The notes under the pieces: generated by a model
What the model saw: only the letters and a program-made list of their open reading frames with translations
Told to the model about the DNA's origin: nothing
Databases searched by the model: none
IMG/VR virus record: IMGVR_UViG_3300045988_151198
Source: a virus
Strand: one strand, 5' to 3'
Length of the DNA: 64,000 nucleotides
In this document: piece after piece, positions 10,901 through 64,000 of the stretch
How the letters are laid out: the number at the start of each line of letters is the position of its first letter
How positions within the stretch are numbered: the first letter of the stretch is position 1
Translations under genes and position numbers: made by a program

Positions 10901-10968
10901 TCGCTTCCGATTGATGAATACTCCATTTGTCGGAAGCAAACATCTTTAGAAAGAAGGAGTGTAAGAGA

Positions 10969-11763
10969 ATGATTGAGGTAAAAGGATCAGTAAGTACAGC
11001 TAAGGTTTTCACAGACTATGTGGATCCGACCGCGTTATCTCAGATTATTGAATTATGTAATCAGGAGTTCACCGAAGGAAGTAAAATCCGTATTATGCCT
11101 GATGTACATGCTGGTGCTGGATGCGTTATTGGAACGACGATGACCATTGAAAATAAGAAAATCGTTCCTAATCTTGTCGGTGTTGATATTGGCTGTGGGT
11201 TGACATCGGCAAGATATGGCGGTTACGAATTGGGCTTCCTGCAAGAATATGAAAAAGAAGAAGGTGTGTGGGTAAATGATTTTTTAAAAGAATTTGATAG
11301 GTTGATTCGGGCAAATGTTCCTATGGGTACGAATGTTTGCGAAAAGCTAATGTACCATCCATTTAGGACACGAATAAAAGAATTGATTTGCGCTAAAAAT
11401 GTAAATATTGAAAGGGGGTATCACAGTATTGGAACCCTTGGTGGTGGAAATCATTTTATTGAAGTTGGATGTGATATTTTCTCTGAAAAGAAAGGGCACA
11501 TAGGAGAATTGCGTAGAGATTTTTATATCACGGTTCATTCCGGATCTCGTGGTATCGGAAAAGAAGTAGCTACTTATTATCAAAAAATTGCGGAAGAACA
11601 ATGCAAAAATGTGCCAAAGCACTTAGCATATTTATCTGGGAACGCATTTGAAGACTATATTCACGATATGCAGATTATGCAGGAATACGCTTCTATTAAT
11701 CGTGATTGTATAATCGAAAAAAATAGCTATGAATTGCGCTTTAATCGCTCCCGCTCCGGATAG
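10969..11763 (+). CDS. rtcB: RtcB-family RNA 3'-phosphate ligase, N-terminal two-thirds (frame interrupted)
   Basis: RtcB motifs MPDVHAGAG, GVDIGCG and GGGNHFIEVG. Start set to MIEVKGS after the AAGGAG RBS. The frame ends at 11763 shortly after an A7 run. Confidence 0.75.
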   Translation: MIEVKGSVSTAKVFTDYVDPTALSQIIELCNQEFTEGSKIRIMPDVHAGAGCVIGTTMTIENKKIVPNLVGVDIGCGLTSARYGGYELGFLQEYEKEEGVWVNDFLKEFDRLIRANVPMGTNVCEKLMYHPFRTRIKELICAKNVNIERGYHSIGTLGGGNHFIEVGCDIFSEKKGHIGELRRDFYITVHSGSRGIGKEVATYYQKIAEEQCKNVPKHLAYLSGNAFEDYIHDMQIMQEYASINRDCIIEKNSYELRFNRSRSG

Positions 11764-12151
11764 CTACGAAGAAACAATTCATAATTATGTCGAGATTGGA
11801 GAAAAGATTATTCTTCGCAAAGGTGCAATCTCCGCGAAAAAAGATGAAAAAGTCATGATTCCATTAAACATGCGGGATGGTATCATAATCGGAAAAGGTA
11901 AGGGCCTTGAGGATTGGAATGAATCCGCGCCTCATGGTGCCGGGCGCGTACTTAGTCGAGGACAAGCTAAACGGCAATTGTCCGTAGATATTTTTAAGGA
12001 TCAAATGGAAGGAATCTATTCAACCTGCATAAACGAATCGACGTTGGATGAAAGCCCTTCCGCATACAAGAATTCTGATGAGATTTGTAATAATCTCGAT
12101 TCCGTAGAAATTGTCGGAAGGACTAAGCCTATCTATAATATTAAAGCATAA
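11729..12151 (+). CDS. rtcB: RtcB-family RNA ligase, C-terminal part in the +1 frame
   Basis: Contains HNYVEIG...RKGAISA and the invariant PHGAGR motif of the RtcB C-terminus. Overlaps the upstream fragment and lies in a different frame. Confidence 0.7.
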   Translation: MNCALIAPAPDSYEETIHNYVEIGEKIILRKGAISAKKDEKVMIPLNMRDGIIIGKGKGLEDWNESAPHGAGRVLSRGQAKRQLSVDIFKDQMEGIYSTCINESTLDESPSAYKNSDEICNNLDSVEIVGRTKPIYNIKA

Positions 12152-48275: not shown

Positions 48276-48423
48276 TCAGAAATTCTCCCTACCTCCTTCC
48301 CATCCCTCCCTTAAAGGCGTCTATCCGGACGCCTTTTTCTTTTCTTGACAAAAATATAGAATGAAGATATACTTCAAAGATATATTGAAAATATCATTTT
48401 ATCAGATAAGGAGAGGAGTTTCA

Positions 48424-50559
48424 ATGGCTAATGTAAAACCCATAACGACTAAACAATTCAATCAAAACAAAAAGCATATCACCGACATCCATTGGTACGC
48501 CGACAATGTTCTTAACGGAAATATTCAGGTCTGTAAATACATTAGAGCATTGTGCAAAAACTTTAAAGATGATCTTGCCAATAAAGACCTCGATTTTTAT
48601 TTTTCGGAAGAATCGTCTATCCGAGTAATTTGTTTTATTGAAAATATGGTGCATGTCAAGGGCGTTCTTACTGGAAAAAGATTAAAGCTTGAGCCTTGGC
48701 AGAAATTCTTCGTTGGAAACATCTTTGGGTGGCTGGATAAGAAAAACAATCTCCGCAGGTACAGGGAGGCCGCCCTTATCGTCCCCCGAAAAGCTGGCAA
48801 GGCTTTAGCTGTAAGCACTCCAATCCCTACTCCCGAGGGTTGGGTCACGATGAATGATTTAAAGCCCGGAGATGCCGTTTATGGGCCAAATTCGGATATA
48901 CGGAGAGTAGTAGCCGTAACGGAAGTGATGTACGGAAGGCCGTGCTATGAAATTTCTTTCAGTGATGGTTCCGCTATTACTGCCGACGCGGAGCATCTTT
49001 GGAAAATCGACGGTAAGAATATCGTAACCTCCGAAAGTCTGCATCAAATCCTGTCCCATAATGGCAGAAAGCCCAAAGTGTGGGTAGCTCCGAATATAAA
49101 AAGGCATGATGGCGAGACGGTGCCTGTGGTAAGATTTATTACGGATTGTAAACCTGTGGAAAGCGTTCCGGTGAAGTGTATACAGGTTGACAATGAAGAT
49201 GGAATGTATCTTTGCGGGAAAACGTATATTCCGACTCACAATAGCAGCCTTGCAGCGGCTATTGGTCACTATATGCTTGTTGGTGAAAAAGAAAAAGGTT
49301 CAGAAGTATACTGTGGCGCGACCACAGAAGTTCAAGCATTTGTCCTGTTCAACATCGCTCGGGATATGATTGTTGCCAATAAAGCATTTGAAGAAGCATT
49401 TGGTCTGACTTATACTAAAGAATCGATTCATGCGCAATCAACGCTTTCTACGTTCAAACCTATTATCGGAAGCCCGAAGGACGGTAGTAATCCTCAATGC
49501 GCTATTGTTGACGAGTATCACGAGCATCCTTCCGACGCGCTGTATGACTCGTTGAAGCTCGGTATGGGCGCAAGACAGCATCCTCTCTTGCTTGTTACTA
49601 CCACCGCAGGGACGAACATTAAAGGCCCGTGCTATCGTTATGTGGAGCAAGGCAGGAAGGTCGTATTGGGAAAAGCAAAGAACGACCGACTATTTTACAT
49701 GGAATTCACCATTGACGATACGGATAAATGGGAAGATTTTTCATGTTGGATTAAGGCCAGCCCGAACTTTGGAGTTTCCGTATCCGAAGAGTTCCTGCGC
49801 GAGCAATACGAAATAGCCAAATCATCACAGTACAAGCGTTCATCCATTCTTACCAAAATGCTGAATGTTTGGAACAATGAATCTGTGGGGTGGATTGACT
49901 TTCCTAAATGGCTTAATTGTACTGACAGAAATCTAAAGATGGAAGATTTTGAAGGCGAGAAATGCTGGATTGGCATTGACCTAGCCTCTAAAGTCGACTT
50001 AACAGCAATGGTTGCCGTCTTTAAGCGTGACGGTAAGTTCTATGTTTTCGGAAAATACTATCTTCCTTCCGATACTGTAGATAGGCCGGAGAATGACCAT
50101 TATCGTGGCTGGAGGGATGAAGGCTGGCTGACCGTAACGCAAGGGGCTCGAACAGATTATCACGCGCTAGAGGAGGACTTGCAAAATTGGGCTGATAAAT
50201 ATGCGATTCAGGAAGTAGCATATGACCCTAGAGAAGCCGAATATCTTATGCAGAATATCCGGGAATGGGCGGCATTTGAATGTATTGAATTCACACAGTC
50301 ATCCGCTACTTTCTCCGAGCCGATGAAAGAGTTTGAAGCTGCGTATCTTAATGGGGAACTTTTCCACCAGAATGACCCTATCCTCAATTTCGCAGCAGGG
50401 AATGTAGTCCTGAAATCCACAACGAACAAACTTGTTTACATGACCAAAACGGCGAATGAAAATAAAATCGACCCGATGGTCGCTATGATTATGGCAATCG
50501 CTAGAGCAATGGAAGATAAAGAAGAAGAGGCGTCAGATCCGTTTATTATGTTCCTTTAA
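48424..50559 (+). CDS. terminase large subunit (Terminase_1-like) interrupted in the Walker A loop by a mini-intein
   Basis: Start set to the ATG at 48424 after the AGGAGAGGAG RBS. Removing residues 148-294 of the ORF restores IVPRKAGK|SSLAAAIGHYMLVG, a canonical PRKxGKS/T P-loop plus the ALY-like segment. Downstream nuclease-domain acidic residues are present. Confidence 0.85.
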   Translation: MANVKPITTKQFNQNKKHITDIHWYADNVLNGNIQVCKYIRALCKNFKDDLANKDLDFYFSEESSIRVICFIENMVHVKGVLTGKRLKLEPWQKFFVGNIFGWLDKKNNLRRYREAALIVPRKAGKALAVSTPIPTPEGWVTMNDLKPGDAVYGPNSDIRRVVAVTEVMYGRPCYEISFSDGSAITADAEHLWKIDGKNIVTSESLHQILSHNGRKPKVWVAPNIKRHDGETVPVVRFITDCKPVESVPVKCIQVDNEDGMYLCGKTYIPTHNSSLAAAIGHYMLVGEKEKGSEVYCGATTEVQAFVLFNIARDMIVANKAFEEAFGLTYTKESIHAQSTLSTFKPIIGSPKDGSNPQCAIVDEYHEHPSDALYDSLKLGMGARQHPLLLVTTTAGTNIKGPCYRYVEQGRKVVLGKAKNDRLFYMEFTIDDTDKWEDFSCWIKASPNFGVSVSEEFLREQYEIAKSSQYKRSSILTKMLNVWNNESVGWIDFPKWLNCTDRNLKMEDFEGEKCWIGIDLASKVDLTAMVAVFKRDGKFYVFGKYYLPSDTVDRPENDHYRGWRDEGWLTVTQGARTDYHALEEDLQNWADKYAIQEVAYDPREAEYLMQNIREWAAFECIEFTQSSATFSEPMKEFEAAYLNGELFHQNDPILNFAAGNVVLKSTTNKLVYMTKTANENKIDPMVAMIMAIARAMEDKEEEASDPFIMFL
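48802..49242 (+). mobile_element. mini-intein (147 aa, no homing endonuclease domain) in the terminase P-loop; class 3-like (Ala1, W-C-T motif)
   Basis: Block A ALAVSTPIPTPEGWVTMNDL; block B ...ITADAEHLW; block F/G VKCIQVDNEDGMYLCGKTYIPTHN followed by the +1 Ser. Excising it restores the Walker A motif. Confidence 0.65.
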
Positions 50560-51524: not shown

Positions 51525-51746
51525 CTATCCCCTATTATTACTCATTATGAGAAGTTTAGAAAATGCTTCATCCCTATATTCCTCGGAAGAAAAAGAATAC
51601 TCAAAAATATGGTCTTCTTTGGTTCCGCATAGCATAATTCGAAGTTTCGTACTACCTTTTTCCTTACTCATCGAAATTATTCTATCCGTGTCAACAGCTT
51701 CTACGCTTTCGCAGTCCTTTCCAAATCGAAAATCTACCAATTTCAT
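51525..51746 (-). CDS. hypothetical protein, paralog of 51281..51523
   Basis: 73 aa. Tandem duplicate. Confidence 0.5.
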   Translation of the reverse strand: MKLVDFRFGKDCESVEAVDTDRIISMSKEKGSTKLRIMLCGTKEDHIFEYSFSSEEYRDEAFSKLLIMSNNRG

Positions 51747-52114
51747 GCCAATCCCTTCCCTTTCCGATAGTCGGAGGTTATTTTTGAATGACAGGATTTA
51801 CATAACGCCATAAGGTTATTTTCGTCAAGTACTTTTCCGCCCTCGTTAATAGGGACTATGTGGTGGACTTCGTTAGCTGCGCTAGGGAATGGGGACGTTT
51901 TCTCGCATTCCTCGCAGAAAGGATGCTTTCGCAGGTATCGCTCACGAACTTTCTTCCATCTTGAATCATACCCTCTTTCCGCTGGAGTTCCGCGCTTCAT
52001 ATCATATCGTTTGTCTGACGAGATCCTGTGCTTGGCGCAATCTTCGCAGTACCCCGAAGGGTGATCCGTTGGTTTTTTACAGTGCTTACATGGTTTTTTT
52101 GGTCTAGGGGGCAT
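51743..52114 (-). CDS. HNH endonuclease
   Basis: N-terminal CKHC...CEDC zinc-finger Cys pairs, then the HNH core VHHIVPINEGG...NLMALCKSCH; GGAGG RBS. Such genes are often terminase-associated. Confidence 0.75.
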   Translation of the reverse strand: MPPRPKKPCKHCKKPTDHPSGYCEDCAKHRISSDKRYDMKRGTPAERGYDSRWKKVRERYLRKHPFCEECEKTSPFPSAANEVHHIVPINEGGKVLDENNLMALCKSCHSKITSDYRKGKGLA

Positions 52115-54198: not shown

Positions 54199-54574
54199 TT
54201 CTTACCATCCTTTCTTCACGTTCCATTTCCGCTTCGACCATAAGTTCAGCTTCACGCAAAAGGCACCAATTGCCGCAACCGGGGAAACTTCCACCTTTGC
54301 GCGGGCACAACGCCTTCATGCTGTGAGCGCAAGGAACATCGTTGTAATCCATGCTAATCAGTTTAAGTTTCACACGAGACTCGAACATAAGAGCGTCATA
54401 ATAGTCAGGATACAAGGAATCAAAATACCCTCTTTCCGGACAATCACTGCACATAAAGGAAAATCGAAATTCACAATTTTCGCATTGATTGATAAAAAGA
54501 ATTCTGTTTTTAAGCCACTCTTTTTCCTTGTTTGTAAGACTGTACTTGTTTTTTCTCATGATGTCAATTCTCAT
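54182..54574 (-). CDS. Cys-rich hypothetical protein
   Basis: 130 aa; CENCEF...CSDCPERG...CAHS...CPRKGGSFPGCGNWC. Confidence 0.45.
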   Translation of the reverse strand: MRIDIMRKNKYSLTNKEKEWLKNRILFINQCENCEFRFSFMCSDCPERGYFDSLYPDYYDALMFESRVKLKLISMDYNDVPCAHSMKALCPRKGGSFPGCGNWCLLREAELMVEAEMEREERMVRNERKS

Positions 54575-54998
54575 TTTTACTTATTTTATAGAAAACCGCG
54601 TCGTTTTTATCCCCGCTAGGCTCATGATACGTAGCGAATGCAATACCATCCTTTCTTCCGAATCTCTGGAACATCTCCCTCGCAATAGTAACCATCCTGA
54701 TCTTGGCTACAGAGTTAGCGGAATGCACTCTTACGATTTGAAGATTGGAGAGCTTACCCTCGGAGATCAGTTTTTCGATTTCATTCAGGATTTGATAGCC
54801 TTCGCTAAGATGCCCCGAGCCTCCAAGGTCATTATCAAGACTAATGCCGTGGGGATTTACTTCTTCAATAATCCTCATAAACTGCTTTCCGCTCCGAACG
54901 GTGTACACTTCAAAATCTTCATCGTCGCCTTCATCCACATCTTGGAAGAAATTATATGAAGGTGTTCTTTCGTCATCCAGATAAATCCATGTTTTCAT
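54564..54998 (-). CDS. receiver (REC)-like fold protein resembling the cyclic-phosphate-processing receiver (crREC) family
   Basis: N-terminal MKTWIYLDDERTP followed by ISLDNDLGG...GYQIL...IVRVHSANSVAK, the pattern recalled for REC-like domains found in RNA-repair contexts. AAGAGGA RBS. Confidence 0.35.
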   Translation of the reverse strand: MKTWIYLDDERTPSYNFFQDVDEGDDEDFEVYTVRSGKQFMRIIEEVNPHGISLDNDLGGSGHLSEGYQILNEIEKLISEGKLSNLQIVRVHSANSVAKIRMVTIAREMFQRFGRKDGIAFATYHEPSGDKNDAVFYKISKNEN

Positions 54999-56050: not shown

Positions 56051-56263
56051 TTATCGGTTATCTGGCAATCCCAAAGTTATAAGCCTCGTAAGAACATGAG
56101 GTTTCGGAACTCCGAAAAGCATTGAGAGCCTAGTAATACTATAATTATGTTCCTCTGCTTTCTCTCTAAACAATTCCTCCGGCATCAAAAGCTCGTATGC
56201 GAATAGGTTAGCTTCAATCTCTTCTTCTCTCGTAAATTGCTTTGATTCGTTTTTCATCTTCAT
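56051..56263 (-). CDS. truncated ImmA/IrrE-family remnant (C-terminal E-EANxFAxELLMP motif only, no HExxH)
   Basis: REEEIEANLFAYELLMPEELF is the hallmark C-terminal motif of ImmA/IrrE metallopeptidases. Only 70 aa are present and the zinc-binding region is absent. Confidence 0.45.
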   Translation of the reverse strand: MKMKNESKQFTREEEIEANLFAYELLMPEELFREKAEEHNYSITRLSMLFGVPKPHVLTRLITLGLPDNR

Positions 56264-56396: not shown

Positions 56397-57281
56397 TTAT
56401 TCGAGGGGGATACTCAGCATGGGGATATTCTCTCCTGTAACCTTGGGCAGAACTCCATTCCATCCAGTAGCCATGATGTATCGGATAAGCTCAGGAGTGA
56501 GGGATTCAGCGAGCTTCTTATTCGCCGTATACTGGGCTTCCGCTTTCTTCGTAATGGAATATGCCTCGGCATCCGCGATCTTCCGCATGGATTCGGCGCG
56601 TCCTTCCGCCTCGGCTTTCTTCTTATCCGCCTCAGCTTGCGCAGTTTCAATTTCTGTGCGGCGCTGCGTAGCAATCTGAATAGCACCCACTTTAGCGTCA
56701 ATCGCTTCCTTTACGTTTTGGGGAAGCCAGATATTGCCGACAATGGCAATGTAATCAATTTTAATCCCAAGAGGCGCGAGACGTTCACGAACTGCTTCCG
56801 TCACCTGCATAATGAACTCGGTCTTCTTTTCTCCGTAAAGCTCCTCGGAAGTCCTTGTAGAAGCGGCACGGACAATCTCGTCTCGAATCATATTGTAAAC
56901 ATATACATTCGTGATTTCGTCAATGCCCTTTCTGTACGTCTGGAAAAGCAAAGACACTTTATTGGGATCAACGGAGTAGGACAGGGAAACGTCAGCACTG
57001 AGAGAAAGTCCCTCTTTGGATTGGAACTGGAATGCGCCGCTATTTCCGGTTCCTCGCCATTCCTTTGTCTGCTGCGCCGTAGAGAACGTGAAAAGCTGTT
57101 CATTAAGGCTGATCCAATGTCGACCCACACCGAGAATTTCTACTTCAACTCCTTTCGACGAGCCAAGCAGATTCACCTTTACGCCAACAGATCCAGCCTC
57201 GACCTTCTCAATGCAAGTAAGAGCGTAAATACCGAAAGCAAGGACAAAAACAAGAGTAACACACGCGATAATCTTTTTCAT
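56397..57281 (-). CDS. SPFH/band-7 (stomatin/prohibitin-like) membrane protein
   Basis: N-terminal TM, a band-7 core and a C-terminal Ala/Glu/Lys coiled coil (AQAEADKKKAEAEGRAESMRKIADAEAY). Confidence 0.7.
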   Translation of the reverse strand: MKKIIACVTLVFVLAFGIYALTCIEKVEAGSVGVKVNLLGSSKGVEVEILGVGRHWISLNEQLFTFSTAQQTKEWRGTGNSGAFQFQSKEGLSLSADVSLSYSVDPNKVSLLFQTYRKGIDEITNVYVYNMIRDEIVRAASTRTSEELYGEKKTEFIMQVTEAVRERLAPLGIKIDYIAIVGNIWLPQNVKEAIDAKVGAIQIATQRRTEIETAQAEADKKKAEAEGRAESMRKIADAEAYSITKKAEAQYTANKKLAESLTPELIRYIMATGWNGVLPKVTGENIPMLSIPLE

Positions 57282-60901: not shown

Positions 60902-61873
60902 TTAGCAATCAAAAACAATTTCCGCCATATCGAAGTAAAGATAATCACTGTAAGTAATGGCTCCGTTACTATTCTCTGTCGCGGAGATTGCGCGTCTCCG
61001 AATTTCCGAGATTACCCTAGACAGTTCTGTAATGCTCATATCCTGATAAGCGTCCGCAAGTTCATGCAAAAGCTGCCTACGGCTCACTGCATAGGAGCAT
61101 TCGATGCTTCTGACAAAAAGATCTCGCTGACTTTCAGAGGTAAATGCCACAGGTACAGTCTTGCGTCGCGTAAAAACGCCCTTGTAAAAAACAATCTTTT
61201 CTTCTTTCACCATGTAAGCATAGTAGCATCGAACGGTAGGTTCTTTGTTTTCCTGCGCACTACCCTCCCAAGTATTGACTTCCTGTGTATGAGCTTCTCT
61301 CTGGATGTTAGCTTCTCTCTGCATATTAACTTCCTCCTTTTCCTTTACATACAACTTAAGTTTATCCCAATCGTCAGCAGTGATTTCTGAGCACAACTTA
61401 TTATCTCCAAAAGGGCACCCAACATCCTTATTTACGAGAGGACACATATTGTAGCCGTAGAGAATTTTATTATTACATTGTCTGGCAAGATCTTCAACCA
61501 AATTTTCTTCAACCAAATTTTCTTCAAACAAATATTTATAAGAATCTATGCCTTCGTCAAGAAAACTGGAGTCAATGAGAGGAAAAGGTGCCAAAACTTC
61601 CCGCTGGTTTTCATGTTCTACGCTTTCCAATTTATTATCCTCCTTTTTTTCTACCATAGCTCTCACCTCGCTCCAATGGCTTTCATCTACGTCACCACAC
61701 ATAGCCTTTAACGGGCATGGGCCTTCTTCTGCATCTGGGCAGACCACATGTATCGTGCAAAGCCCGGGTGATCTTCTACAAAGATGAGCTAGCTCTTTAT
61801 CCGTCTTTCTACTTAAAATGAGAGTAAAAAGTTCTTTCCTTCGCTCTACGTTCTTCTGAGAAATATTTGACAT
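60902..61873 (-). CDS. 323-aa protein with two copies of the Cys-rich CP..CP..C..DW module, an in-frame (ENLVE)n repeat and a C-terminal globular domain
   Basis: Repeat 1 LCRRSPGLCTIHVVCPDAEEGPCPLKAMCGDVDESHWSEV; repeat 2 QCNNKILYGYNMCPLVNKDVGCPFGDNKLCSEITADDWDKL. Confidence 0.5.
   Translation of the reverse strand: MSNISQKNVERRKELFTLILSRKTDKELAHLCRRSPGLCTIHVVCPDAEEGPCPLKAMCGDVDESHWSEVRAMVEKKEDNKLESVEHENQREVLAPFPLIDSSFLDEGIDSYKYLFEENLVEENLVEDLARQCNNKILYGYNMCPLVNKDVGCPFGDNKLCSEITADDWDKLKLYVKEKEEVNMQREANIQREAHTQEVNTWEGSAQENKEPTVRCYYAYMVKEEKIVFYKGVFTRRKTVPVAFTSESQRDLFVRSIECSYAVSRRQLLHELADAYQDMSITELSRVISEIRRRAISATENSNGAITYSDYLYFDMAEIVFDC
61493..61530. repeat. 15-bp tandem repeat (ttcttcaaccaaatt, about 2.5 copies), in-frame inside 60902..61873 (ENLVE repeats)
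   Basis: Direct tandem copies visible in the sequence. Confidence 0.6.
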
Positions 61874-61958: not shown

Positions 61959-62288
61959 TTATTTAAAAATATACACGATAAAGATTGTAAACAAGCTTAC
62001 CGCACCAAACCCGGCTAGAGAAGCAACTACTCCATATGCAAATGATTTGGGAAACTTTTCAACAAAACGCTTTTTCATGACATACATTCTTTGGGAAATC
62101 TCTTTTGAGGGAACTTCATATTCACGCCCGCACATTGTGCATTTCCAAATAAAAACAATAAAAACCGTCTCCCCATCTCCTCTTAGTTCGTTCCCATCCT
62201 TTTGGAAAACCGTATGTGAACCACCACAAACAGGGCAGTCCCTTCCAAAATCATATGCTGGCACTGAGATACGAATATCGTTTTTCAT
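61959..62288 (-). CDS. zinc-ribbon plus C-terminal TM protein, paralog of 62313..62645
   Basis: PAYDFGRDCPVCGG...GDGETVFIV..WKCTMCGREYEVPSKEISQ plus a TM tail. Confidence 0.5.
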   Translation of the reverse strand: MKNDIRISVPAYDFGRDCPVCGGSHTVFQKDGNELRGDGETVFIVFIWKCTMCGREYEVPSKEISQRMYVMKKRFVEKFPKSFAYGVVASLAGFGAVSLFTIFIVYIFK

Positions 62289-62312: not shown

Positions 62313-62645
62313 TTACGAAAAAATCGAATTGAAAAGTAAGAGCCCCAAAACGCCTACCCCAAATGCACCTACAGAAAACAATGCGAAACAGAGCAAAGTT
62401 CCGGATAAATCTTCCCAAAAAAGTTTAATAAAAATATATTTTAGATATTCCGTCTTTTGGGAAACCTTTTTTCCCGGAACCACGTAATTATAAGAGCATC
62501 TCCGGCATCTCCAAACAAACACTGTTTCTCCATCTTCCGTTGTTTTTATATCTGGTGTATAACCATTAAAAGGCCAGTCCCCACAGATAGGGCATTTATC
62601 GGGAGCCTTATATGCTGGCCTATCCACAATATCGCTGTATTTCAT
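62313..62645 (-). CDS. zinc-ribbon plus C-terminal TM protein, paralog of 61959..62288
   Basis: PAYKAPDKCPICGD...EDGETVFVWRCRRCSYNYVVPGKKVSQ plus a TM tail. Confidence 0.5.
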   Translation of the reverse strand: MKYSDIVDRPAYKAPDKCPICGDWPFNGYTPDIKTTEDGETVFVWRCRRCSYNYVVPGKKVSQKTEYLKYIFIKLFWEDLSGTLLCFALFSVGAFGVGVLGLLLFNSIFS

Positions 62646-62760
62646 TTTAAATATCCCCCTTTTTATCGTTTTGTTCCAATAATCGTAAAGAAGAAAATCA
62701 CACTAAGAATTGCTATAACGTAAATAAAATTATCTGGAATCATGTATGTTTTCCTTTTTT

Positions 62761-62808
62761 CGTGATTTTATGATTTCGTGATTTTATGATTTCGTGATTT
62801 TATGATTT
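62761..62808. repeat. 16-bp tandem repeat (cgtgattttatgattt, 3 copies)
   Basis: Three perfect copies. The stop codon of 62800..63288 lies in the third copy. Confidence 0.7.
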
Positions 62809-63288
62809 ATTAAATTCTTTTCGCTTCTGCCTCCATATCTCACCACCCAAAATTCCCGGAGGAACAATCCATTGATTTGTTCTTCCATAATTTGCACCGT
62901 TATTTGCTTCGCGGTAATTTCTGATACACATTTGCATCCACGTATCACTCAAAGCACCATTCTCTTTTACAAAATACGGAGTTCCTCTATAAGGTAATCT
63001 GGACCTATATATAAAAATCTCACGCCCTCCACTCTTCCAATACTTTCTCGTGTTTTCAAAATTAAAAGAGAACTTTACCTTTTCTACGAGCATCACAGCA
63101 GGTTCAAATTCGCCTTTCTTGATATCGAATATTTCCATCCTTCCCGCCTTAGCTCTGATTCTGCGGTTAGTTACAAGCGCCCTTACGAAACCAAGAATTT
63201 CATTGGAATCAATACCAATGATAACACCTGTGATATTATGCGTGTGAAGGTATCCTATGAAATGACGAGTTTCCGAGTTATCTTTCAT
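62800..63288 (-). CDS. hypothetical protein adjacent to the iteron-like repeats (weak GIY-YIG-like N-terminal pattern)
   Basis: Start set to MKDNSE after the AAGGAG RBS. HFIGYLHTHNITGVIIGIDS loosely resembles GIY...YIG. It is the last gene before the repeat-rich terminus. Confidence 0.35.
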   Translation of the reverse strand: MKDNSETRHFIGYLHTHNITGVIIGIDSNEILGFVRALVTNRRIRAKAGRMEIFDIKKGEFEPAVMLVEKVKFSFNFENTRKYWKSGGREIFIYRSRLPYRGTPYFVKENGALSDTWMQMCIRNYREANNGANYGRTNQWIVPPGILGGEIWRQKRKEFNKS

Positions 63289-63384
63289 TACCTCATCTCC
63301 TTGTGTTAAGATCAACCTACCCTACTTTGAATTTTCATGCAACAAAATTTTCTATTTTATGAAAAAATTTTAGCTCCGAAAATA

Positions 63385-63548
63385 CTCCCCACCTGTCCCA
63401 AAAATGTTAGCTTGGATCGAGATCCCCACCTCGTCCAAAAATGTTAGCTTGCCTCGCATCCCCCACCTTTTTCGTTTACGTTAGCTCGGCTTGCACTCCC
63501 CACCTGTCTCGAAAATGTTAGCTTGGATCGAGTCCCCCACCTTGTATT
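63385..63548. repeat. about 4.5 imperfect direct repeats of 36-38 bp, each with a CCCCACCT core and (A)ATGTTAGCTTGG (iteron-like)
   Basis: Units at about 63385, 63423, 63459, 63496 and a partial one at 63534. About 80% identity between units, with no unique spacers. Confidence 0.65.
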
Positions 63549-63559
63549 AGAGCGCGCGC

Positions 63560-63665
63560 GACCTTGATTGATTGCTCGCTCAACCAAGGTAGGTTGATTG
63601 CTCGCTCAACCAAGGTAGGTTGATTGACCGAACAATCAAGACTGGTTGATTGTACGCGCAACCAA
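63560..63665. repeat. GGTTGATTG-based repeats, including two 26-bp copies of ggttgattgctcgctcaaccaaggta, each containing the hairpin GGTTGA...TCAACC
   Basis: Direct repeats visible. Each unit is internally palindromic. Confidence 0.6.
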
Positions 63666-63945
63666 TGTTGCTTCACGGGTACAGAGCAAGAGCGCGTCCA
63701 TAGATGTAAGAACTGGACGCCACAAGGTGAAGCGCGACCGTGCAAAAACATGAGCTTATACACTAGACGCTGCCCATGCTTTTCTTTTCGTGATAGTGTT
63801 ATGTTTCATTGCCTAGGCATTTGTTCCTTCATAAATCGATTATACGGCCTTTTTGTTTCTTTCATGGGTTCTCCTTTACGTTTCAATAAATCGCTTCTTA
63901 AATCGGCATTTGTGAGCGTCTTTTTTTCTTTCTCATGGATACGGG

Positions 63946-64000
63946 CAAGCTGTACCGTGCTCAAGCTGTACCGTGCTCAAGCTGTACCGTGCTCAAGCTG
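63946..64000. repeat. 16-bp tandem repeat caagctgtaccgtgct (more than 3 copies; runs off the window end)
   Basis: Perfect copies at 63946, 63962 and 63978, and a partial one at 63994. Confidence 0.7.

Follow-up and report, generated by a model that had tools for sequence, protein, structure and literature searches.

The window analysed here is a 64,000-nt stretch of the IMG/VR virus record IMGVR_UViG_3300045988_151198 and covers most of the genome (~86-90 kb) of an uncultured, gut-type tailed phage whose capsid and terminase are of HK97 type. The last part of the window (62761-64000) is rich in repeats. We found that this region is an internal non-coding cassette of ~0.8-1.1 kb between two co-directional minus-strand operons, and not a genome end. 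From 50.6 kb to the window end, every gene is small, lies on the minus strand and is mostly without annotation; given that the repeat region lies inside this co-directional block, it is to be read on the minus strand. In gene sense, the upstream part of the cassette comprises a terminator, a promoter-like element (P_A), a hairpin with a variable-number tandem repeat (VNTR2) in its loop, a possible short open reading frame (sORF) and a GC-rich folded segment. The downstream part comprises one to four palindromes, a conserved junction, five bipartite boxes, an AT-rich tract, a predicted promoter (P_B), a Shine-Dalgarno (SD) sequence and a 162-aa gene. Three of these elements, namely the terminator, P_A and the hairpin's 5' arm, are located past the window edge and known from relatives only.

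All four repeat families listed in an earlier note on this DNA were located with the program TRF and a repeat finder. They comprise a first 16-nt family (VNTR1; 62758-62808, 3.2 copies, 100% identity), a 37-nt family (63363-63543, ~5 copies, 69-80% identity), a 26-nt family (63568-63665, 3.8 copies forming four units, 81% identity) and a second 16-nt family (VNTR2; 63946-64000, 3.4 copies, 100% identity), which crosses the window edge. With 100 dinucleotide-preserving shuffles as chance control, the observed counts of GGTGGGG, of the AGCTAAC box, of the palindrome pattern and of the 16-mers were reached in none (0/100), and of the ten arrays to which TRF gave a score of 60 or more in the 64-kb window, eight fall within 61.3-64.0 kb, its last 2.7 kb. 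The 37-bp unit, for which ~4.5 copies had been claimed, thus has ~5 by TRF, with its core at exact 37-nt spacing, and the 16-mer running off the window edge, for which at least three copies had been claimed, has 3.4 identical ones. The 26-bp unit does contain the palindrome GGTTGA..TCAACC, but its copy number had been understated (two or more claimed, four found). The dismissal of CRISPR also holds: the units stand head to tail without spacers, their interiors vary, the 37-nt units are 69-80% alike, and no significant match to the Rfam CRISPR-DR families was obtained for the region.

With regard to coding capacity, the repeats are non-coding overall, as had been claimed, except that the first 16-mer array is not purely intergenic, since it overlaps the end of the 162-aa gene. 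Coding by the arrays is excluded, because none of the unit lengths (16, 26 and 37 nt) can be divided by three and because copy numbers change. The sole long open reading frame (ORF) in sense direction, of 81-97 aa over the GC-rich and palindrome part (81 aa at 63518-63763), was rejected, its frame being broken in relatives with another number of 26-nt units. The statement that no convincing gene lies in 63320-64000 therefore stands, except for a possible 19-aa sORF with a ribosome-binding site on the minus strand (63806-63865). A Chi-site cluster and a G-quadruplex were considered as well; only the G-run speaks for them.

A strongly conserved part of the cassette is the 37-nt family, which consists of five bipartite boxes of the form AGGTGGGG-N11-AGCTAA(C)RT on the minus strand (63370-63542) at exact 37-nt spacing, at 63518-63542, 63481-63505, 63444-63468, 63407-63431 and 63370-63394. 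The complementary CCCCACC(T) accordingly occurs five times at exact 37-nt intervals (63387, 63424, 63461, 63498 and 63535). Sixteen related loci were collected from IMG/VR sample 3300045988, ENA and Logan assemblies by exact-pattern scans and a neighbouring-protein search. Five units at 37-nt spacing are present in 13 of the 16, and the other three carry four units, spaced 37, 37 and 47 nt. When 34 distinct units were aligned, AGGTGGGG, AGCTAA and a T three positions further on were invariant, and the spacers were variable. Among nine orthologous haplotypes, one of 70 sites is polymorphic in the boxes versus 58 of 115 elsewhere (Fisher p = 3e-14), the box positions for this count being definable from the five units of this window alone. 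The boxes are thus under sequence-specific constraint, that is, strong purifying selection, and the anatomy of iterated protein-binding sites that had been proposed is supported.

Within the window, the bipartite motif is confined to this array, and in relatives it is found only in the two cassettes described here, the second of which (R2) is a paralogous copy. The geometry of each unit is promoter-like, with AGGTGGGG at -34..-27 and T-A-A-n-n-T at -12..-7; a general class of phage-specific promoters was nevertheless rejected, as the motif stands before no other operon in the window. The period of 37 nt corresponds to ~3.5 helical turns.

Downstream of the boxes follows an AT-rich tract (63343-63369), which is kept in relatives and is either UP-element-like or similar to a DNA unwinding element. 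The predicted sigma-A-type promoter P_B lies next to it on the minus strand (63314-63342), with the -35 element TTGCAT at 63337-63342, a 17-nt spacer and the -10 element TAGGTT at 63314-63319; tract and promoter together form 50 nt at 22% GC (63320-63369). P_B is kept in three sublineages (TTGCAT or TTACAT, 17 nt, then TAGGTT, TAGCAT, TAAGTT or TAGAGT), even where the first downstream gene differs, and it is similar to other minus-strand promoters of the window, which read TTGACA-17-TAGTAT or CATAGT. An SD sequence, AAGGAG (63297-63302, minus strand), is located 8 nt before the ATG at 63288 and is also kept in relatives.

This ATG opens the 162-aa ORFan gene (62800-63288, minus strand), which is the first gene downstream of the cassette here; in some relatives, an extra gene is inserted between the box array and the 162-aa gene. 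The 162-aa protein, which the earlier note proposed as a putative binder of the repeats, had no match in Pfam or PHROG, and a PDB profile search gave nothing. Eight homologues were found in 5.8 billion proteins and two more clusters among 1.84 billion representatives, all of them from this clade, and the AlphaFold2 model, with a mean pLDDT of 40, is unusable. Directly downstream of the 162-aa gene lies a pair of neighbouring paralogues (61959-62288 and 62313-62645, minus strand) of ~110 aa each, with an N-terminal zinc ribbon and a C-terminal transmembrane helix.

Upstream of the boxes in gene sense, the conserved junction GGTCGCGCGCGCTCTAATACA (63543-63563, minus strand) recurs in the paralogous cassette as GGTTGCGTGCGCTCTAAGAAA. 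It is preceded by the four 26-nt palindrome units (63568-63665), in which a 20-bp TTGATTG-N6-CAAYCAA overlaps GGTTGA-N8-TCAACC. The arms of these units are kept and the centre is variable; relatives have one to four units, and the paralogous cassette has one. Where one arm has changed, the other shows no matching change, and the palindrome therefore fits a DNA site rather than an RNA hairpin. Next comes a GC-rich segment of 126 nt (63659-63784, minus strand) with a putative conserved fold, part of which is the hairpin GCGTCCA-N13-TGGACGC at 63694-63720. This segment exists as two alleles and one recombinant and is missing from the paralogous cassette.

The possible sORF, sORF2 (63806-63865 including the stop, minus strand), would code for 19 aa, MKETKRPYNRFMKEQMPRQ, and has the ribosome-binding site AAGGAG at 63871-63876. 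Relatives keep its SD sequence, ATG and first ~12 codons, and so do the paralogous cassette (MKEKKRPQKRFMRE) and the divergent L007 lineage (MKDAKRSQNLFM). The putative product is basic and may be a micro-protein or a leader peptide. Another candidate, sORF1, located upstream of sORF2, was rejected as coding, being frameshifted by an A6/A7 run in this window. Further upstream, the 3' arm of the hairpin, AAAGACGCTC, lies at 63914-63923 on the minus strand, and its 5' arm, GGCGTCTTT, lies past the window end; both arms of the whole structure, GGCGTCTTT...AAAGACGC, are seen in relatives, with VNTR2 in the loop. The promoter-like P_A reads TTGCTA, TTGGTG or TTGCGT, 17-18 nt and TATAAA, and is followed by a less conserved TRTGnTATAAA element. 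The intrinsic terminator, after a GP88-family gene, has a stem that occurs in three variants, with changes that compensate each other, and a loop that is inverted in one case. No strong terminator was found between P_A and P_B.

These upstream elements invite the question of whether the cassette acts as RNA. The P_A transcript would then be a long leader or non-coding RNA comprising the 5' hairpin, sORF2 as leader peptide and a GC-rich domain, and the five motifs AGGUGGGG...AGCUAA, being single-stranded and SD-like, would bind an RNA-binding protein or the ribosome; antitermination would be an alternative, as a boxA-like GCGCUCUAA precedes the motifs. Such a role is consistent with the P_A-like elements kept in both cassettes with a conserved hairpin directly downstream, with the SD sequence and ATG of sORF2 kept in three divergent versions, and with the absence of a strong terminator on the way from P_A to P_B. 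The GC-rich segment could likewise be a structured leader RNA: its RNAalifold consensus is a multi-branch fold in which 99.6% of cells are paired and three pairs are compensatory, a result obtained with only eight closely related haplotypes and with the structure derived from the same alignment. However, the single-sequence folds of this segment have weak z-scores of -0.6 to -2.1, and the whole region has -2.4. Rfam searches of the window and of two relatives returned nothing at gathering thresholds, and at E <= 5 only chance-level matches to miRNA and CRISPR-DR families. Moreover, the conserved boxes lie outside all predicted pairing, the palindrome arms show no covariation, and R2 has no GC-rich element. 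We therefore regard an RNA-level function as unlikely.

The two 16-nt families behave very differently from the boxes in their copy number. VNTR1, AAATCATAAAATCACG x3 in gene sense (62761-62808, minus strand), occupies the spacer after the 162-aa gene, and its first minus-strand copy provides the last two codons and the TAA stop (62800-62802) of that gene; close relatives have one to four copies, and the array is missing in more distant ones. VNTR2, AGCACGGTACAGCTTG x3.4 in gene sense (63946-64000, minus strand), has from one to more than ten copies among relatives, and many contigs end in it. Neither 16-mer has a further match in the window when up to three mismatches are allowed, and the idea that they are small-RNA targets was rejected on this ground. 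As both arrays consist of perfect head-to-tail copies whose number differs between close relatives, they are slippage-prone, hypervariable VNTRs for which no sequence-specific function is needed. Since their copy number is not conserved, they are not iterons, and the iteron role that had been suggested for all families falls away for these two of the four.

That all the repeats are neutral products of slippage or duplication, without function, is very unlikely. Both 16-mers and the 26-nt units do vary freely in copy number between near-identical phages, and the clade has other intergenic tandem arrays. Against this, the 37-nt array is constant in unit number, spacing and box sequence although its spacers diverge, and the same boxes are retained in R2 among unrelated flanking genes.

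The practical effect of the VNTRs is that short-read assemblies are broken, hence the terminus-like look of the region. In relatives, the sequence beyond the 16-mer array continues with ~100 nt of non-coding DNA, a hairpin terminator, the GP88-family gene and more minus-strand genes. At least seven contigs cross the region (122762, 150955, 125712, 141352, 122143, OLZU01000396 and OLFZ01000128), and at least nine end inside one of the arrays. Both ends of contig 150758 lie within the same 16-mer array, which amounts to circular closure at the repeat; for contigs 102485, 138443, OLZE01000053 and UMFB01024559, this array is the site of one end, and three Logan contigs end in the last 37-nt unit. 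Contigs 119450 and OGRD01000130 begin at an identical point, ~188 nt upstream of the first box; judging from its position, this point would lie in a stretch that in L007 is a ~48-nt tandem duplication. Otherwise, the break points vary from contig to contig. The apparent terminus is thus explained by unresolvable tandem repeats that break assemblies, together with the window edge, and the terminus proposed in the earlier note has to be abandoned: relatives run through the region into minus-strand genes, and the contigs that stop do so in tandem arrays. This removes a false terminus, as contigs with both ends in the 16-nt array would be rated 'complete, direct terminal repeat', although they are merely circular assemblies broken at a microsatellite. 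The phage clade is generally rich in assembly-breaking intergenic repeats; at the start of contig 122143 (L001 1-130), for instance, a tandem array of interleaved 10-11-nt units, CATCGGGAGA and GGCTTCCAGAG, stands at the contig end.

The same evidence bears on the proposal of a pac or cos site here, where terminase would recognise the DNA and the genome would physically end; we consider it extremely unlikely. Repeat-rich non-coding DNA at the window edge and the several contigs that end here are what speaks for it. Against it, the ends fall inside perfect tandem arrays, contig 150758 closes circularly at the repeat, other contigs cross the region, and the break points differ. In addition, the terminase genes do not adjoin: the HK97/phiP27-type TerL (48361-50559, plus strand) is 13 kb from the repeat region, an HNH gene lies at 51743-52114, and TerS is found in relatives ~6.7 kb past the window end, with a repeat-rich divergent region of its own.

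This P27-family terS (L023 3146-3616) is followed by a cluster of five tRNA genes. Directly upstream of it, ~6.5 kb past the window end in relatives, is a divergent intergenic region of ~600 nt (L023 2540-3140, also L004 12330-12755) that carries ~13 copies of a ten-nt-phased (A/T)TGAC(A/G). As a cos/pac or origin candidate, this divergent region is better than the repeat cassette. The terL gene, at the far end of the structural block, is more than 20 kb from terS, an unusual arrangement; TerL is 732 aa long, its phiP27-type match comes in two pieces, and its N-terminus appears extended.

The distribution of the boxes is narrow. Scans for the box pattern in IMG/VR and metagenomes returned only this clade, the pattern was absent from the genomes of 185,579 bacterial and archaeal species, and a search for remoter syntenic relatives via the GP88-family gene led to the same clade only. 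As the wider box scan returned this clade alone, it offers no clue to the host and no distant versions for covariation. Nor did blastn with the repeat region match any of 50,697 phage records or 72,556 plasmids. The closest cultured phages are distant (TerL is no more than 39% identical and the major capsid protein ~35%), and no characterised relative was usable.

Within the clade, the second cassette, R2, provides an internal comparison. It is shorter and lies ~6 kb further on, on the same strand, in relatives (L004 9870-10340, minus strand; L001 2180-2720). Its parts follow the order of the main cassette: terminator, P_A, hairpin, the sORF2 homologue MKEKKRPQKRFMRE and one palindrome, then a GCGCTCTAA junction, two boxes, an AT-rich tract and a consensus promoter, TTGACA-17-TAGATT, after which come unrelated genes. 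The R2 hairpin has the same stem with a short loop in L001 and a precise deletion in L004. Both cassettes are located at operon boundaries, directly after a terminator and directly before a promoter.

We tentatively favour, with somewhat less than even confidence, the reading that the cassette is a protein-binding array controlling transcription re-initiation. It is based on the position of both cassettes at operon boundaries, on the retention of P_B despite an inserted gene and on the TTGACA/TAGnnT flavour that the promoters share. In addition, conserved core sites are located within a few hundred bp upstream of a predicted promoter, as in regulator arrays, the boxes spanning about -28 to -200 relative to the P_B -35 element. 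According to this reading, transcription from upstream would halt at the terminator, and re-initiation into the downstream operon would be set by one or more sequence-specific DNA-binding proteins of phage or host origin. Their binding sites, of activator or repressor type, would be the five boxes and the palindromes beside P_B, and P_B would drive the 162-aa gene and the genes after it. Alternatively, each 37-nt unit may itself be a weak promoter-like site.

Several observations weigh against transcription control. A strict scan for sigma-70 promoters and terminators did not call P_A or P_B, both of which fail its T6 or 9-of-12 rule, and the two remain consensus-level predictions resting on their conservation. 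The distance from the last box to the P_B -35 element is 52, 69 or 46 nt in the three sublineages; fixed helical phasing between the sites and the promoter is thus lacking, and an activator that depends on the face of the helix is not supported. No helix-turn-helix, ribbon-helix-helix or other DNA-binding domain was noticed in the neighbours scanned, although this search was not systematic, and other promoters of the same block have no such arrays. Furthermore, direct repeats, an AT-rich tract and two homologous loci also give the cassette the look of an iteron origin, and if P_A is active, the boxes are transcribed too, which makes an RNA-level role possible. What the analysis shows is the anatomy, the pattern of conservation, how copy numbers behave, the internal position and the presence of a paralogous cassette, whereas we infer promoter activity, protein binding and the direction of regulation.

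The main rival of transcription control is a replication origin, an explanation that we hold to be possible, if on the unlikely side. The boxes would then be iterons for a phage initiator, the 50 nt at 22% GC would be the unwinding element, and R2 would be a second origin or an enhancer, in the style of SPP1 oriL/oriR or P4 ori/crr; initiation may be activated by transcription from P_A or P_B, or primed by it for the family-A polymerase. Several features speak for the origin named in the earlier note. The array has five phased direct repeats, where three or more are expected of iterons, under purifying selection and with fixed number and spacing; an AT-rich tract follows immediately after it, and in R2, too, boxes are followed by such a tract. 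Downstream of P_A, moreover, the strand on which the boxes are G-rich is the non-template one, and PolA is among the proteins of the phage. Other observations speak against an origin. GC skew is negative on both sides, so that the expected inflection is seen at the region neither in the window nor in L004, although this counts for little, as skew here goes with gene orientation. No enrichment of DnaA boxes was seen, and none of the flanking genes could be recognised as coding for an initiator, a replisome organiser or a helicase loader. The replication module (SNF2, DUF2800, Enc34-type SSB, PolA) is encoded by the opposite strand, at 1-10 kb of the window. The AT-rich tract, moreover, is fully explained by a promoter with an UP element, and iterons are usually phased at two helical turns, from which the 37-nt period differs.

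A more specific version is an origin primed by transcription, in which the P_A transcript would stay hybridised to the DNA along the phased GGTGGGG clusters and the phage PolA would extend it, with R2 as a second origin or enhancer. We regard this version as quite unlikely. If true, iteron-like repeats would provide a ColE1/T7-like priming logic in a large, uncultured phage with Firmicutes-like hosts.

The remaining proposal, a centromere-like partition site of a plasmid-prophage with a small centromere-binding protein coded nearby, is highly improbable. In its favour count a likeness to centromeres of the sopC and parC type, as the tandem arrays vary in copy number and have inverted repeats embedded in them, and several small neighbouring proteins without annotation. 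Nonetheless, none of the flanking genes scanned has a ParA, ParB, ParM or TubZ-type domain, and the absence of similarity to plasmids and of the box pattern from the bacterial and archaeal species genomes also argues against it. PolA, NrdD, tRNAs and many small early-type genes are present, and no integrase, repressor or par module was seen; this gene content fits a virulent phage, which is a further point against partition.

The rest of the window shows how the cassette is placed in the genome. The plus-strand block at 1069-50559 encodes SNF2 helicase, DUF2800 nuclease, Enc34-type SSB, PolA, RtcB, ThyX, dUTPase, NrdD/NrdG, portal, protease, HK97-type capsid protein and the phiP27/HK97-type TerL. 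The RtcB RNA ligase is split over two overlapping ORFs, 10927-11763 (profile positions 137-254) and 11729-12151 (278-425), which could be due to a frameshift, to programmed recoding or to a sequencing error. In the region after 50.6 kb, a protein with a cREC_REC (cyclic-phosphate processing receiver) domain lies at 54564-54998. A 70-aa fragment at 56051-56263 (minus strand), whose match to the IrrE/M78 peptidase domain is confined to the C-terminal part of that domain, adjoins an SPFH/Band-7 protein at 56397-57281 (minus strand), with no partner helix-turn-helix repressor seen. Finally, a 323-aa Cys-rich ORFan gene at 60902-61873 contains in-frame tandem repeats of 18 nt (61288-61333) and 15 nt (61491-61533), which code for the peptide repeats EENLV... 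and MQREA...

The cassette defines a compact cis-element for a clade in which almost every early-type protein is an ORFan, and the five-box element can be used as bait for the first regulator or initiator of the clade. If the element is regulatory, it would mark the early-to-delayed switch points of the leftward transcription unit. If it is an origin, it would be an SPP1-like two-locus origin for a PolA/DUF2800-type replication system, for which none is known.

Compared with known systems, the cassette resembles several and matches none of them in full. With tandem-repeat centromeres such as sopC of plasmid F, it shares head-to-tail units of tens of bp, some with an inverted repeat, and a variable copy number; it differs in that no partition operon and no sign of plasmid or lysogenic maintenance are found here. 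Bacillus phage SPP1 has origins with direct repeats together with an AT-rich stretch at two homologous loci, one of them an intergenic segment bracketed by transcription signals beside moron-like genes (PMC6316719). The likeness to the gp38-bound oriL and oriR of SPP1 lies in two homologous loci several kb apart, each with direct repeats followed by an AT-rich stretch. However, there is no sequence similarity, and no gp38-like initiator was found here; the period is 37 nt, the boxes are bipartite, the AT-rich part also holds a conserved promoter, and an origin role is only a candidate one.

Activator and repressor arrays offer another parallel. In the lactococcal phage TP901-1, the Alt activator binds direct repeats upstream of P_late, and lambda-type operator clusters belong to a similar class. 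As in these, a promoter located where an operon begins is preceded, within ~250 bp upstream, by several imperfect direct repeats with a conserved core, and 20-bp palindromes are near. In contrast, the array-promoter distance varies here (52, 69 and 46 nt) and five units are set at a 37-nt period. The middle promoters of T4 combine a MotA box centred near -30 with a sigma-70 -10 element, and each 37-nt unit similarly has a conserved block at -34..-27 and an invariant T-A-A-n-n-T at the distance of a -10 hexamer. The units here are nevertheless tandem at 37 nt, the motif stands before no other operon of the window, and no MotA/AsiA-like or sigma-like gene was recognised.

T4-type phages also carry mobile regulatory cassettes, termed PeSL, which consist of an early promoter and a stem-loop. 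The module of terminator, promoter and stem-loop found here likewise occupies more than one intergenic site and has unrelated small flanking genes, mosaic alleles and an adjoining gene insertion; it differs in being much longer (0.5-1 kb), in containing iteron-like arrays and VNTRs, and in having two copies only. Overall, the feature is a familiar kind of regulatory or iteron-like cassette in an uncharacterised phage clade.

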